This document shows, piece after piece, positions 27,001-30,000 of a stretch of 64,000 bases of DNA. Origin of the DNA: an uncultured Methylomirabilota bacterium (GTDB lineage Bacteria; Methylomirabilota; Methylomirabilia; Methylomirabilales; 2-02-FULL-66-22); contig CAWJSJ010000002.1 of NCBI GenBank assembly GCA_963845565.1, positions 2,272,001 through 2,336,000 of the forward strand. The letters are read 5' to 3'. Numbering within the stretch: position 1 is the stretch's first letter; the number at the start of each line of letters is the position of its first letter. A program made the position numbers.

Positions 27001-30000
27001 CCGAGCCGGAGGTGGTGGGCAAGAAGGAGAAGGAAGAGGGTGAAGCCGCCGCACCGGAAACCAAGAGCAAGGCGGGCGCGGAGGCCAAGACGAAGTAAGC
27101 CGTTGTAAAAAATAACTTGACCGGAGAAATTTCGGGACCGGCATAAGGAGCCGTAACGAAATTGCAAAAAATGGACAGGTTATTTCGTAACGGCTCCTAA
27201 GTGGCGGCCATGGGGGCGGCGCGCTGGCTGGTGGCGGGGCTGGGAAACCCCGGTGCCGATTATTCCGGCACCCGGCACAACGTGGGTTTTGCCGCGGTGG
27301 AGCGGTTGGCGGCGGACGGTTCGACGCGATTCTCCGACGGGGGAGGCGACGCGCACGCGGCGCTGATCCGGGTGGCGGGGACGCCGGTCGTACTGCTCAA
27401 GCCGCAGACGTTCATGAACCGAAGCGGCGCCGCGGTGGCGGCGTGGCTTGTGCGGCTGGCGTTGCCGGCGGCGGGGCTGGTGGTCGTGCACGACGACCTT
27501 GACCTTCCGCTGGGCCGACTGCGCGTCGTGGCAGCGGGCGGAGCGGGCGGGCATCGCGGGGTGCGCTCTATCCAGGAAACCCTGGGCACGACCGAGTTTC
27601 CGCGGGTTCGGGTCGGGATCGGCCGGCCCGAGGCGGGGCAGGCGGCCGCTGATCGCGTACTGACGGACTTTACACCGGAGGAGCGTCCGGTGGCGACGGC
27701 CGCGGTGGCCCGGGCGGCCGAGGCGGTGCGCTGCCTGATCCTGGACGGGCTGGCGCCCGCCATGAATCGATACAATGTGCGCCCGGAACCCGGCTCGGGT
27801 CCGCTGGCGATGACGGGACCGCAACCGGAATAGATTCCAGACGACCAAGGGAGGTGAGAAGCGTGCGAGCGTACGAAATGATCTTTATCCTGGACCCGGC
27901 GCTGGGTGACGACGGCGTGGAGGCGGCCGCCGTGGCGGCCAAGGCCGTGCTGGTCAAGGCCGGCGGCGAGGTCACGGAAGTCCAGAAATGGGGCAAGAAG
28001 CGTTTGGCCTACGACATCAAGAAGCGGCGCGAGGGGCACTACGTCTATTTCCGCGCGCAAGCGCCGGCCAAAGCCGTGGCGGAACTGGAGCGCCACCTGC
28101 AGATCGCGGAGCCGGTGCTCAAGTACCTCACGGTGCTGGTGCAGACGCCGCGGCGCAAGGCGGTGAAGGCCAGCGCGCCCGCAGCCGTCGAGGCGACTCC
28201 TCAGGAGGCCTGACCATGGCCAGCTTCAACAAAGTGATTCTGATGGGGAACCTGACGCGGGACCCCGAGCTGCGGTATACCCCGAGCGGGGCACCGGTGT
28301 GCAACTTCGATCTGGCGATGAACCGGTCCTATACCACCCAGGGCGGGGAAAAGCGGGACGAAGTCTGCTACATGACCGTGGTGGTGTGGGGAAAGCAGGC
28401 CGAGAACTGCGCCGAGTACCTGGCAAAGGGCCGGACGGCATTGGTGGAGGGCCACCTGCAGCAACGGTCGTGGGAGACCCCGGAGGGCCAGAAGCGTTCC
28501 AAGCACGAGGTGGTCGCAGAGCGTGTGCAATTCCTCGGGCCCCGCAAGGGGGCGGCCGGGCCTGCCGGCGGCGAGGACGATTCGGAGCCGCCGCGCGGCC
28601 CCGAGCACGAGGAGGTCCCGTTTTGAGGTGGAGCGTGACCGTCCCGCGCGACCCTGGCGGGACGGATAGGCGTCGGAGAGCCCCGGAGGCGGGGCGGAAG
28701 GAGAGCGAGGCGTGCTGAAGAAACGGCGAACCTATCGTCGCCAAAAGGTGTGCAAGTTCTGTCTGGACAAAGTCCTCTTGGTGGATTTCAAGGACGTGAA
28801 GCGACTGCGCGGCTTCGTGAGCGACCGGGGCAAGATCATCCCCCGGCGGATCTCCGGGAACTGCGCCTATCACCAGCGGCAATTGACGGCCGCGATCAAG
28901 CGGGCCCGCAGCATCGCCCTGCTGGCGTTTGCTGCGGAGGCCTCGTAAGTCACCCGGAAGGACGGACGCCGTGAAGGCTCGGGTGCGGGGCAGGCGGTTC
29001 CTGGCCGCCACGGTGGAAGCCGTGTTGGCCAGTGTTCTGGCGGTCGGCCTGTTCGCGTCGGGCAGTTTCTTTCCGTTCCTGGGGATCGTGCTGAGCCTGT
29101 TCTGCCCGCTCCCCTTCGTGGCGGTTGGGCTGCGTCATGGCCGGACGATGCTGGCTGTGGCCTTGGCCCTGGCGACGCTGATCCTGATCGTGCCGCTCTC
29201 GCTCCAGCAGGGGATGATCTTCCTGCTGGAGTTCGGTGCGCCCGCACTGGTCCTGTACGAAGGGCTGCGGCGCGGCACCCGGTCGGACGTATTGGTGGTC
29301 GGTACGGCCGTGGTGCTGCTGGTGGGGGGCGTGGCGGTGTTGTCGCTGGCCACCGGCCGGTGGGACGAACCGGTTCGCGCCATCGAACAGCATCTCGACG
29401 GCCTCTTGGGCGGCATGGAAACTCTCACCGCTCAGCTTGGCCTCTCCGATAGTCCGGGGGCGGCGGACGCGCCCGCGCAGCGGTTACGGGCGGCGCTGTT
29501 GGCGGCGTTTCCCGGCCTCCTGTTCGTCGGCAGCCTGCTCACGGCGGCGGGGTACGCGGTCACTCTGCAGGCCATGATCCGCCGTTGGCCGGCACAGTTT
29601 GGCGGGGTGCAGCCGGCTGCGTTCCGCTGGGAACTGCCGGAACTCTTAGTCTGGCCGTTCATCGCGTCGGGGGTCTGTTTTCTGATCGGGATACCGTCGC
29701 TCCGGGTGGTGGGGCTGAACGGACTGATCGTGCTTCTCGGACTCTATTTTTTGCAGGGCCTCAGTATCGCGGCCTTTCTGTTCCGGCGGTTTCAGTTGCC
29801 CAGGTTCCTGGCGACCTTGTCGGTGATCCTGCTGGTCTTCCAGCCGTTCTTCACGTTGCTGGTGGCCGGGTTGGGACTCTTCGATGTCTGGTTTGCATTT
29901 CGGCGCCTCAGTTTGAACCGCCCACCCGGGCAAACCTAGCCGGGGGGCGCCGAGCGTGGAGAGTGGCGCGTCACATTCGGAGGACGGAGCGAATCATGAA

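Follow-up and report, generated by a model that had tools for sequence, protein, structure and literature searches.

In the genome of an uncultured Methylomirabilota bacterium, a window of 64,000 nt (the whole stretch of DNA analysed) includes a 102-nt hairpin repeat fitted between the stop codon of one gene and the first possible start codon of the next. The locus raises the question of what kind of element this repeat is, and how it came to occupy this and many other gene ends. Small hairpin repeats are common in bacteria, and both their movement and their clustering behind genes are poorly understood.

The element between ctc and pth

The upstream gene (26403..27098, plus strand) is an L25/Ctc ribosomal protein ORF by its Pfam domains Ribosomal_L25p (6.9e-22) and Ribosomal_TL5_C (2.1e-27), and its TAA stop at 27096-27098 is the landing triplet of the repeat. 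The element itself, a member of a family here called A, occupies 27099..27200 on the same strand, reads GCCG...CTCCTAA, and is non-coding and mobile as judged from its genomic copies and from the element-free site in a sister genome, G009. Its 3' end is directly adjoined by GTGGCGGCCATG, where the ORF of peptidyl-tRNA hydrolase begins (pth, 27201..27833, plus strand; Pfam Pept_tRNA_hydro, 2.6e-58); the first possible start, GTG, abuts the TAA of the element, and an in-frame ATG follows 9 nt further on. In contigs from RNA libraries, in which DNA carry-over is possible, the element is joined on one side to ctc and on the other to pth. A scan of 27050-27260 against Rfam gave two chance-level matches only (E 0.13 and 0.5), far under the gathering scores.

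Two domains, both described for the plus strand, were recognized in the folds. The left domain (27099..27142), which starts at base 1 of the element, consists of an outer 6-bp stem, GCCGTT/AACGGC, around a small CGGAG...TCCG hairpin, and the right domain (27146..27198) is a long hairpin with inverted 18-nt arms, GGAGCCGTAACGAAAT and ATTTCGTAACGGCTCC, and a variable loop. The last three bases (27198..27200) are an element-borne TAA, on which a putative nine-codon frame beginning with ATG (27171..27200) terminates; in the window copy it would encode MDRLFRNGS. Folded as RNA, the window copy gave -34.8 kcal/mol (z -5.0), and as DNA -19.8 kcal/mol (z -4.9), with none of 200 shuffles as good in either case. 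The RNA values of the window copy and of the family consensus (-37.6 kcal/mol) do not exactly match the -42 kcal/mol given in an earlier survey of this genome.

A total of 188 copies of at least 80 nt were identified among 206 HSPs by blastn against the genome, and 191 among 220 HSPs by a looser search, 96 on the plus and 95 on the minus strand, in line with the survey's count of about 189. The alignment of 161 full copies contained two subfamilies of 89 and 63 copies, and the window copy belongs to the subfamily with CTTGACCGGAG. The outer left stem was invariant in 16-19 of 19 aligned copies, and 16 stem pairs of the right hairpin in 18-19 of 19, the loop of the latter differing between the subfamilies. 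The left inner hairpin is retained in both subfamilies with differing sequence; both keep the CGGA/TCCG hairpin, to which one adds a C-G pair. An apparent compensatory change at alignment columns 24 and 36 was rejected as a one-base register shift in the tool alignment, and no covariation was counted. Terminal inverted repeats are absent, the two ends, GCCGTTGTCAAAG... and ...GTAACGGCTCCTAA, not being inverted copies of each other. The sole end-to-end inverted match is the weak 6-nt GCCGTT/AACGGC, offset by the conserved TCC that stands between the right-hand AACGGC and the TAA. The ATG of the nine-codon frame is retained in 139 of the 161 full copies, and a frame from this ATG to the terminal stop in 128, while its putative start, as read from the sequence, has no well-spaced ribosome-binding site.

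Empty sites and the insertion target

Of the 182 copies whose 5' end is intact, 117 follow TAA, 18 TGA, 15 CAA, 9 TAC, 8 TAG and 15 another triplet, the non-TAA triplets being mostly one-base variants of TAA. The complementary order, TTA, preceded only 3 of the 182 copies, and the orientation is therefore fixed relative to the target. The last triplet of the element itself is TAA in 168 of 188 copies, regardless of the triplet on the left, so that the survey's description of family A as following stop triplets and ending in TAA is upheld. Position -4 was C or G in 139 of the 161 full copies, and the base 3' of the element in 146.

Clean pairs of filled and empty sites were obtained for five family A loci by comparison with sister genomes. 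At the ctc end of G009, the sequence AAG TAA|GTGGCGGCC is element-free and corresponds to TAA[102 nt]GTGGCGGCC in the window. The copy at C2:246591 lies behind TGA, and four of five relatives (G009, G013, G014 and G004) have the empty site CGC TGA|GG, the fifth, G012, having TAA. For a copy behind CAA the empty site in G009 is GGCAA|GGCG, and for two further copies the empty sites are CAG| and GGCAA|, without TAA. The empty sites with TGA, CAA and CAG thus show that no TAA was present before insertion. At a further CAA-left locus, C2:302944, the left flank is rearranged in G009, and this comparison is therefore uninformative. The same asymmetry was found within the genome: among 179 copies scored at both ends, 54 have a non-TAA triplet on the left and TAA on the right as against 8 with the reverse arrangement, matching non-TAA pairs occur in only 3, and all 18 TGA-left copies end in TAA.

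These observations show that family A is mobile, inserts without target duplication 3' of TAA (or TGA or CAA), and carries in the TAA at its end itself; the filled and empty sites in sister species fix its boundaries to the base. The choice between a target duplication and insertion 3' of the target, which the survey had left open for this family, is settled by the empty sites and the triplet asymmetry in favour of the latter, in the style of IS200/IS605. The TAA present on both sides of 108 of the 179 copies and the weak 6-nt match near the ends would be in keeping with a classical MITE of the DDE type, with TAA (or TA) duplicated on insertion, but this origin is highly improbable: it is contradicted by the empty sites without a prior TAA and by the TAA ends of all the TGA-left copies, the target is non-palindromic and yet entered in a fixed orientation, the conserved TCC separates the right-hand AACGGC from the TAA, and neither DDE_Tnp_1 nor DDE_3 was found in the genome.

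G009 contains copies that are 99-100% identical to copies in the genome studied here (G000), as against an identity of 85-95% in the flanks of the loci compared, which speaks for recent movement. The family is present in 5 of 21 genomes of the genus and absent from 16, two of which are near-complete. No joints skipping the element were found in the assembled contigs of four sequencing runs; contigs drop rare variants, and hence this is no evidence against excision. Tandem pairs of A copies within 200 nt were not found, even though each copy rebuilds a target. As measured by GC skew in 100-kb windows of the 6-contig assembly, 109 copies are on the G-rich strand against 82, and 60 against 52 when only copies away from gene ends are counted; 70% of the genes sampled have the same strand. 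There is no clear bias for the lagging-strand template.

Candidate enzymes and related systems

Five RAYT-like Y1 genes, coding for proteins of about 340 aa with HUH and Y motifs and a C-terminal helix-turn-helix, are the only transposase-like genes found in the genome. Four are Pfam Y1_Tnp loci, scoring 21-38 bits, three of them above the 23-bit cut-off; the fifth paralogue is frameshifted and was found by protein search alone. For the three scanned against NCBIfam, the best model was REP_Tyr_transpos (REP-associated tyrosine transposase), at 64-67 bits against a cut-off of 80. TnpB and the two DDE families searched, Pfam DDE_Tnp_1 and DDE_3, gave no match in the assembly, which is 98.7% complete by marker genes, and a search with Y2_Tnp (IS91) gave none in this genome or in the control genomes and is therefore uninformative. 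The five Y1 genes have no A element, and no member of the second family, B, considered below, closer than 600 nt. One of these genes (C2:558215-559267) has its own perfect inverted pair of 27-30 nt, unique to that place. Close orthologues of four of the paralogues occur in other sets of genomes, none being confined to the five A-bearing ones.

A full-length parent, or a transposase gene with A-like ends, was not found among the partial A matches or the IS200 copies of relatives. Canonical IS200 TnpA was absent at E 1e-11 from G000 and G013, both rich in A copies, and the IS200 copies found in G012, G009 and G005 differ from A at their ends and have only chance 9-mers in common with it. The only same-strand pair of a left and a right half-copy, 8.6 kb apart on C3, was rejected as a parent, as the genes enclosed are housekeeping and toxin-antitoxin genes (for MazE, GNAT/TacA, an FAD protein and a GTPase) with no transposase among them.

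Elements of the IS200/IS605 group such as IS608 and ISDra2 insert strand-specifically 3' of a short target of 4-5 nt without duplication; the sequence cleaved at their right end resembles the target, which lies away from the hairpin foot, their subterminal hairpins are recognized as single-stranded DNA, and they show a lagging-strand-template bias. Family A is similar in its strand-specific insertion 3' of a target, in the lack of duplication and in its target-like right end, but is different with respect to the strand bias, which it does not clearly show, and to its target of 3-4 nt, which touches the foot of the left hairpin. The mycobacterial interspersed repetitive units (MIRUs) also lie within operons, oriented with transcription, and contain small frames with stop and start codons overlapping those of the flanking genes; they are, however, tandem minisatellites, whereas A is a single hairpin element with defined insertion junctions.

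Closer counterparts are the palindrome-associated transposable elements (PATEs) of Haloquadratum walsbyi, which, in the available part of their description, derive from IS200/IS605-type insertion sequences (PMC3119063). Like them, A is too short to code, has no terminal inverted repeats and carries near-terminal palindromes at both ends, makes no target duplication, has a short targeting sequence on its 5' side, and forms homogeneous high-copy families with strain-specific insertions. Its oriented insertion 3' of a short target resembling the right-end cleavage site is a further trait of such elements. Two others are missing, ends in common with a full-length tnpA/tnpB insertion sequence and the lagging-strand-template orientation bias. 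PATE ends match those of resident IS605-type elements, whereas the ends of A match no insertion sequence found, and the PATE target is 4-5 nt long and distant from the left palindrome, in contrast to the stop triplet of 3-4 nt at the hairpin foot of A (PMC3119063, same part). Stop-codon docking is not mentioned for PATEs in that part of the source.

REPs, according to the available parts of two descriptions, lie within 20 bp of upstream ORF ends and are mostly transcribed (PMC3733652), and the ends of GTAG REPs frequently supply flanking ORFs with their TAG stop (PMC2817692, PMC3733652). As in the REPs and REPINs so described, family A consists of high-copy hairpin repeats located mostly between tandem or convergent genes near the 3' end of the upstream ORF (PMC2817692, PMC3733652), and its right domain, a doublet of inverted 18-nt arms, is REPIN-like. 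It differs from REPs in lacking a GTAG or CGTC tag, as it starts with GCCG and ends with CTAA; unlike in the GTAG REPs, the sense-side stop is host sequence and no part of the repeat. Nor does A flank a Y1 gene, or follow in its distribution any Y1 orthologue of the four paralogues compared, and the Y1 proteins here depart from RAYTs in their length of about 340 aa, their C-terminal helix-turn-helix and their scores under the NCBIfam cut-off. No description of bacterial repeats targeting stop triplets, or of repeats of this phylum, was found in a literature search that left out most subscription journals.

Its two end hairpins, its fixed orientation and the lack of terminal inverted repeats thus make A look like an IS200/IS605-type PATE or a REP-like element and not like a classical MITE. 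We conclude that A is probably a non-autonomous, hairpin-ended single-strand element of the HUH/Y1 tyrosine transposase type, which would make it the bacterial equivalent of the PATEs derived from IS200/IS605 and related to REP/REPIN sequences. The junctions show that the unit GCCG...CTCCTAA is cut and pasted, always in one orientation relative to the target, and enters directly 3' of a same-strand TAA, with TGA, CAA, TAC and TAG tolerated, C or G preferred on either side, and no duplication made. As the last three bases copy the preferred target, each insertion rebuilds C-TAA-S (S, C or G) behind it. On the sense side, a gene ending on the target triplet retains its stop; on the antisense side, a convergent gene that ended T-TAG across the target regains TTAG from the 3' end of A. 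Both ends being safe for reading frames in this way, copies pile up exactly at ORF ends, mostly in operon-like gene pairs, and docked copies would join the 3' untranslated RNA as two stable hairpins. We infer that one of the five RAYT-like Y1 proteins moves A in trans. Several observations weigh against the model as a whole: neither a parent nor a transposase ending like A was found, no Y1 gene has A at its flanks and none of the four paralogues compared matches A in distribution, a lagging-strand bias is not clearly seen, the short target touches the hairpin foot, tandem A pairs are missing, and the gene ends rest on crude calls.

Occupancy of gene ends by families A and B

Gene ends were taken from our own crude gene caller (4,723 genes), not from an annotation. 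On this basis, the first base of 79 of 182 A copies immediately follows a co-oriented stop codon, close to the 82 of 186 in the survey's finding. Among the 179 copies scored at both ends, 77 are docked on the sense side only, 22 on the antisense side only, one on both and 79 on neither. In the 23 copies docked on the antisense side, the convergent gene regains its TAG stop from the 3' end of A, which reads TTAG on the opposite strand; 15 of these copies have CTAA on the left, as the insertion model predicts. The earlier statement that no copies abut stops at the other end does not hold for either family, a convergent stop being present at the far end of these 23 A copies and of 8 of 103 B copies; docking is two-sided.

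The S-TAA-S sites that coincide with stop codons held A in 52 of 400 cases, as against 43 of 1,621 for intergenic sites (odds ratio 5.5, p 9e-15). When the antisense class is separated, sense stops are occupied at 13% (the same 52 of 400), S-T-TAG ends at 30% (18 of 60) and other intergenic sites at 1.9% (31 of 1,609), and in coding DNA only 4 of 2,405 S-TAA-S sites hold a copy. A co-oriented ORF starts at most 150 nt downstream of 56 of 78 sense-docked copies, which places docked copies in likely operons. The survey had proposed that stop triplets as targets suffice to make gene ends the main landing pads; A does prefer TAA, but this is insufficient, since an excess of 7- to 15-fold per site over other intergenic S-TAA-S sites remains.

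Family B was found at 208 unique loci (about 199 in the survey), of which 180 could be oriented. The left triplet of these was TAG in 69, TAA in 28 and TGA in 16, and the left tetranucleotides are mixed, including CTAG, CTAA, TTAG and GTAG, the last in 17 of 180. The stop docking claimed for B was also reproduced, 90 of the 180 abutting a co-oriented stop by our gene calls. As the far (R2) end carries a convergent stop in the 8 copies mentioned, the orientation bias at stops is 11 to 1. In a further 24 of 180 copies a gene ends on the internal TGA of B; offset 11 applies to all of them, and neither of the other frames is represented. The left end, CAGGCTGCTGAAAAAGG, recurs as inverted copies at R1 and at the R2 tail. 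B had been taken to end at the right inverted repeat R1, but the inserted unit extends about 35 nt past it, and measures about 160 nt including the tail at C2:1102437. This locus, the one clean filled/empty pair for B, has CTAG on both sides and a single CTAG in the empty sites of G032, G016 and G018. Two other loci were not decisive: at C2:671721 the spacer of G004, where the gene is about 15 codons longer than in G000 and G009, is too diverged to inform, and at C1:129935 the empty sites of G012 and G013 have TGA against TAG in G000, in flanks that are 15% diverged.

The flanks of B are YTAR on both sides and equally variable, pointing to a small target duplication by another enzyme class than that of A and away from a mechanism shared by the two families. 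B is a different element, unrelated to A, that reaches the same places by another route. The survey's reading of both as non-autonomous transposons at stop triplets stands insofar as both are non-coding and mobile (A by five loci, B by one), and fails insofar as A is no usual MITE. Whether B is a terminal-inverted-repeat MITE making a 3-4-bp YTAR duplication through an IS5-like DDE enzyme since lost, and not a stop-triplet-specific element inserting 3' of its target, is evenly balanced in our judgement. The inverted repeats, the equally variable flanks with CTAA and TTAG about equally common on the left (14 and 12 of 79), the excess of identical flanking 4-mers (10 of 79 against 4.7 expected, p 0.012) and the doubled CTAG at C2:1102437 speak for such a MITE. 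A palindromic target, however, does not predict the 11-to-1 orientation bias; the flanks still match in no more than those 10 of 79; the genome has no DDE_Tnp_1 or DDE_3 gene; and the occupancy of TAG stops (56 of 1,446) against intergenic TAGs (13 of 7,612) far exceeds availability.

For A, the gene-end excess may have arisen from survival alone, a possibility that we rate somewhat below even: insertion would occur at equal rates at any accessible TAA, and copies elsewhere in intergenic DNA would quickly be lost, since most TAA and TAG triplets of a genome with 66% GC fall within functional AT-rich signals. That A and B dock alike despite different mechanisms is as expected from such losses, and so are the near-empty coding sites, the survival of B within ORF ends solely in the frame that gives an immediate TGA, and the preservation of stops by both ends of A. 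Survival alone does not easily account for the docked copies in likely operons, where a 102-nt hairpin would be as disruptive as one a few bases on. Moreover, the excess is not accounted for by flanking bases, local GC, copy age or strand. It persists between convergent genes, where promoters are lacking (12 of 76 against 6 of 134), and when sites of like upstream GC are compared (32 of 273 against 25 of 815); it is as strong in the youngest copies (33 of 67, 16 of 41 and 23 of 53 by divergence tertile); and the intergenic sites between tandem genes are equally poor on the sense (16 of 618) and antisense (16 of 544) strands. Under the insertion model favoured above, the 7- to 15-fold excess would be in part real site preference and in part loss of copies elsewhere.

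It seems doubtful that the docked copies were kept for their usefulness, as a hairpin right after the stop that may shield the upstream mRNA, adjust termination or recycling, or pass ribosomes on to the next gene via the nine-codon frame. The invariant stems with variable loops, the retention of the ATG and its frame in most full copies, the RNA-library joints with ctc and pth (subject to the DNA carry-over) and the location and transcription of REPs as given in the available part of PMC3733652 would agree with a function. On the other side, 16 of the 21 genomes of the genus have no A and the orthologous sites function in its absence, docked copies have diverged as much as undocked ones (5.1% and 5.5%, p 0.40), and the start of the frame has no well-spaced ribosome-binding site. 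Comparably unlikely, though conceivable, is that A, and perhaps B, is actively directed to ORF ends on either strand, for example by the terminating ribosome or by the uncoupling of transcription and translation, or that the first stem of A must be melted by ribosomes to be tolerated.

As parasitic DNA, family A is thus of a known kind, and its preference for gene ends is unusually strong; it is inserted behind stop codons without damage to the neighbouring genes, each of its ends keeping the stop of a neighbour. New are the empty sites in sister genomes that establish its mobility, its base-exact boundaries, the stop-like target of 3 nt and the lack of duplication. If the excess reflects targeting, it would be a new means by which a transposon reaches harmless sites; if selection, it would be a measure of how scant free space is in a compact GC-rich genome; and if direction to ORF ends were true, A would be a bacterial transposon with landing sites set by the reading frame of its host. 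The A system should also serve as a simple substrate for testing the role of the widespread 340-aa Y1 proteins with a helix-turn-helix tail. By our own gene calls, about 100 A-bearing and 114 B-bearing genes have gained a new structured 3' end.

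The window copy and its kin in the genome

In the window, ORF calls on the plus strand place prs at 25387-26340, followed by the gene of an L25/Ctc ribosomal protein (26403-27098, stop codon TAA) and that of peptidyl-tRNA hydrolase (pth, 27201-27833), the latter two also identified by domain match. A copy of the non-coding repeat family A, GCCG...CTCCTAA (27099-27200), makes up the entire 102 bases from the TAA stop to the earliest possible start of pth. Its predicted fold consists of a left domain with the closing stem GCCGTT/AACGGC and a long right hairpin with two inverted 18-nt arms, and reaches -34.8 kcal/mol as RNA (z -5.0) and -19.8 kcal/mol as DNA (z -4.9); in both cases, none of 200 shuffled sequences folded equally well. 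No family was matched in an Rfam search of this copy. The ctc-element and element-pth joins were both present in contigs of two RNA libraries, which is compatible with co-transcription, short of proof. Four public runs of metagenomes or metatranscriptomes (X13, X16, X2, X9) show a summed contig depth at 27103-27226 of 10 to 150 times the depth of the flanks, and loose contig ends at the element carry many different left flanks with TAA, TAG or CAA as their last triplet, indicating that family A is abundant in those communities.

A total of 188 copies of at least 80 nt were identified by blastn among 206 HSPs in the source genome (5.36 Mb, six contigs, 66% GC), and 191 among 220 HSPs under a looser setting, 96 on the plus and 95 on the minus strand. 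The 161 copies alignable across the full 102 nt form subfamilies of 89 and 63, plus nine others, with differences mainly in the loops and a mean divergence from the subfamily consensus of about 5%. Conservation has sharp limits, beginning with the G that follows the left triplet (the three bases preceding the element) and ending after the terminal TAA. Across the 182 copies whose 5' end is intact, the left triplet is TAA in 117, TGA in 18, CAA in 15, TAC in nine, TAG in eight and another triplet in 15, and the last triplet of the element itself is TAA in 168 of 188. C or G is found at position -4 in 139/161 copies and directly after the element in 146/161. An ATG in the loop of the right hairpin (window 27171-27200) is kept in 139/161 copies despite the loop differences between subfamilies; it opens a nine-codon frame ending at the terminal TAA in 128/161, reading MYRLFRNGS* in 64 copies.

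Family A was present in five of the 21 genomes of the genus, with first-look candidate counts of 226 in the source genome (G000), 119 in G009, 86 in G013, 64 in G012 and 13 in G004, and went undetected in the remaining 45 genomes of the order (first-look counts 0-6 at a very strict cut-off). Among the copies in G009 are some with 99-100% identity to copies in the source genome, against 85-95% for the orthologous flanks, indicating that family A has been active since the species split or has moved between species.

Mode of insertion and candidate enzymes

The window locus in G009 (flanks 87-92% identical) lacks the element and reads AAG TAA|GTGGCGGCC. For the copy behind TGA at C2:246591, the empty sites of G009, G013, G014 and G004 read CGC TGA|GG, and that of G012 has TAA. 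The G009 empty site of the copy behind CAA at C2:709743 is GGCAA|GGCG, and those of C2:707233 and C2:2405218 are CAG| and GGCAA|, respectively. The copy at C2:2404240 stands behind TAC in the source genome, but TAA occupies this position in the empty site of G009 and in the filled sites of G012 and G013, so that the left triplet there changed after insertion. Based on these empty sites in sister genomes of the same genus, the moving unit is GCCG...CTCCTAA, inserted 3' of its target without duplication. The survey had left this mode undecided against a 3-bp TAA target duplication; the empty sites settle the matter for insertion 3' of the target, and the triplets at the two ends likewise speak against a duplication. 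Among 179 copies scored at both ends, 54 have TAA on the right but another triplet on the left, eight show the reverse, and an identical non-TAA triplet at both ends occurs in only three, whereas a target duplication would decay symmetrically and give matched pairs. TTA on the left is found in 3/182 copies, i.e. the orientation is fixed relative to the non-palindromic target.

At one stop codon (L021:451-553, compared with L051, L052 and L053), the element is present in the source genome, G012 and G013, and G009 is cleanly empty (TAA|GAGG), even though G009 is the nearest relative by flank identity. This could mean precise excision or independent hits on a saturated site.

The absence of inverted terminal repeats and of duplication, the fixed orientation, the hairpins at both ends and the right end repeating the target together make up the anatomy of the IS200/IS605 or PATE type. 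Family A is thus probably an element of IS200/IS605-type single-strand transposition, with RAYT-like Y1 genes as candidates for the enzyme. PATEs are hairpin-ended, duplication-free, non-coding derivatives of IS605-type elements, sharing with family A the lack of terminal inverted repeats and of duplication and the end hairpins (PMC3119063). Family A is also close to REP/REPIN sequences, which are moved by RAYT enzymes according to two reports (PMC2817692, PMC3733652); the latter describes REP families as hairpin repeats hugging ORF 3' ends, with GTAG ends that supply TAG stops (PMC3733652).

Searches of the source genome for TnpB, DDE_Tnp_1 and DDE_3 found none. The genome encodes five Y1 proteins of about 340 aa that combine HUH and tyrosine motifs with a helix-turn-helix tail; their best NCBIfam match is the REP-associated tyrosine transposase at 64-67 bits, under the 80-bit cut-off. 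Neither family A nor family B flanks any of the five genes, and for the four that were searched the set of genomes with close orthologues never coincides with the A-bearing set. Genus-wide, this gene family is very plastic, numbering 1 to 17 full or partial copies per genome, mostly about 50% identical to each other, and even sister species seldom share close orthologues. Canonical 150-aa IS200 transposases are carried by many relatives, including G009 and G012, with none in the source genome or G013 at E 1e-11, and the ends of the relatives' IS200 elements are unlike those of family A. An IS200-like unit of about 630 bp with a 150-aa TnpA, about 80% identical, lies in G012 (L098:1373-1999), G009 (L099:1374-2002) and G005 (L100:1356-1984); G012 holds two equal-scoring copies, and the ends are unrelated to family A. 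No clear lagging-strand bias of family A was detected (109 vs 82).

A perfect inverted repeat of 27-30 nt, TTAGGGGACGTAGGGTACTTATAGTACTTA, lies on either side of one RAYT-like Y1 gene, at C2 ~558154-558184 and ~559268-559297 (L004:1389-1419 and L004:2503-2532); the repeat includes GTAG along with a small palindrome, is absent elsewhere in the genome, and looks like the REP pair of a RAYT that never spread. Between two half-copies of family A (C3:34300-43600, L096) lie a MazE-like antitoxin and a GNAT toxin with a TacA-like antitoxin, adjoined by housekeeping genes. Parent-IS, RAYT-flanking and GTAG tests for membership in a named family all failed, and family A is filed as a variant of already described element types, outside every named family.

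Docking of family A at ORF ends

Genes were called independently of the annotation by a codon log-odds caller trained on long ORFs, yielding 4,723 genes with 2,577 TGA, 1,446 TAG and 700 TAA stops. A total of 79/182 copies start at the first base after a co-oriented stop (60 TAA, 14 TGA, 5 TAG), closely matching the 82/186 of the survey's finding. A co-oriented coding start follows within 150 nt in 56/78 of these sense-docked copies, mostly within 50 nt, indicating that they lie in formerly very short operon spacers. In spacers of tandem genes, the sense orientation accounts for 106 copies and the antisense orientation for 38, or 44 vs 38 without the 62 docked copies.

The docking is not one-sided: at 23/179 copies an opposite-strand gene ends on the TAG from the last four bases of the element (CTAA = TTAG), and no opposite-strand gene ends in the other two frames. 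The target C-TAA-S (S, C or G) reads S-TTA-G on the opposite strand; a convergent gene ending in T-TAG across this target is severed one base ahead of its stop and receives the identical TTAG back from the element's end, a geometry that explains the antisense docking. CTAA stands left of 15 of the 23 copies, matching the prediction. Counting both strands, 100/179 copies have a boundary that coincides with an ORF end: 77 dock only in sense, 22 only in antisense and one both ways. Ten copies in relatives' extracted loci (about eight independent) follow TAA in nine cases and TAG in one, and all ten end in TAA; by a simple test, four are docked in sense and one in antisense.

Occupancy was counted over S-TAA-S sites outside repeats, treated as independent and classified by the same gene calls, leaving out copies with a mutated left triplet. 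The element occupies 52/400 sense stop codons (13%), 18/60 S-T-TAG gene ends (30%), 31/1,609 other intergenic sites (1.9%) and 4/2,405 coding sites (0.2%); with other intergenic sites as the reference, sense stops have an odds ratio of 7.6 and S-T-TAG ends one of 21.8 (both p <1e-14). The gene-end excess of family A exceeds target availability. It is observed in convergent spacers alone (12/76 vs 6/134) and at matched upstream GC of at least 0.65 (32/273 vs 25/815, p 3e-7), and docked copies number 33/67, 16/41 and 23/53 from the youngest to the oldest age class. Between tandem genes, sense-strand intergenic sites (16/618) are occupied no better than antisense ones (16/544), and therefore position on the coding strand is not the cue. 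Since a perfect C-TAA-S target is recreated at the 3' end of every copy, several tandem pairs are expected from these occupancies; no A-A neighbours within 200 nt were found in the source genome.

Three readings of the excess can be combined. The docked copies may be only the survivors of insertion, as suggested by the near absence of family A from coding DNA, by both ends being built to preserve stops and by the docking of the unrelated family B, of which 24 copies end genes only in the immediate-stop frame; yet most docked A copies reside inside likely operons, where they are expected to be as disruptive as copies a few bases downstream. True targeting of ORF ends, by a hypothetical mechanism, would fit the youngest copies, whose docking is exact in frame and independent of strand. 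A putative function at the message 3' end would agree with the invariant stems and with the ATG and nine-codon frame kept in 139 and 128 of 161 copies, but most of the genus lives without family A, and docked copies are as diverged as undocked ones (5.1% vs 5.5%, p 0.40). The literature searched, with incomplete coverage, yielded no stop-like triplet as transposition target, no element conserving the neighbouring stop at each end and no measurement of a 7- to 20-fold excess per site where ORFs end.

Family B

Family B, recovered via over-represented 16-mers, comprises 208 unique loci in the source genome, 180 of them orientable and none in the window. The unit starts with CAGGCTGCTGAAAAAGG, an inverted copy of which (R1) follows 120-170 nt on; a second, more degenerate inverted copy (R2) is located about 27 nt beyond R1 in 103/180, with the end ...CCTG CTAG. 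At C2:1102437, comparison with the empty sites of G032, G016 and G018 indicates an insertion of about 160 nt including this tail, so that the right boundary proposed by the survey falls about 35 nt short. The filled site has CTAG on either side, the three empty ones a single CTAG. The flanks are both YTAR and equally variable, CTAA and TTAG being equally common on the left, and identical flanking tetranucleotides exceed expectation (10/79 vs 4.7, p 0.012); together these favour a reading in which family B, unlike family A, is an inverted-repeat element that makes a small duplication. Family B is present in G014, an A-free single-contig genome.

The left triplet of the 180 copies is TAG in 69, TAA in 28 and TGA in 16, and 90 abut a co-oriented stop. 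Into 24 further copies the gene enters by 11 nt and stops on an internal TGA, always in the immediate-stop frame. Family B occupies 56/1,446 TAG stops against 13/7,612 other non-coding TAGs (odds ratio 23.5). Its far end, for which no stop contacts had been reported, abuts a convergent stop in 8/103 copies, and the distance from R1 to a convergent stop peaks at 25-28 nt (12 of 27 cases within 80 nt). In 16/62 undocked copies, the left end adjoins a divergent gene's ribosome-binding site.

Seven A-B neighbour pairs within 120 nt were found in the source genome, e.g. C2:1060896-1061113, C1:607370-607623 and C5:63312-63648. At C2:1061044, family B seemingly interrupts family A, an A half-copy (1-51) following directly behind the B tail. 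At one B locus (L057:430-470, compared with L067 and L064), the gene upstream terminates in ...NRRI* at the element, with TAG in the source genome and TAA in G009, the junction stop having since changed between the two; this gene is about 15 codons longer in the B-free G004, and the insertion may have shortened the protein.
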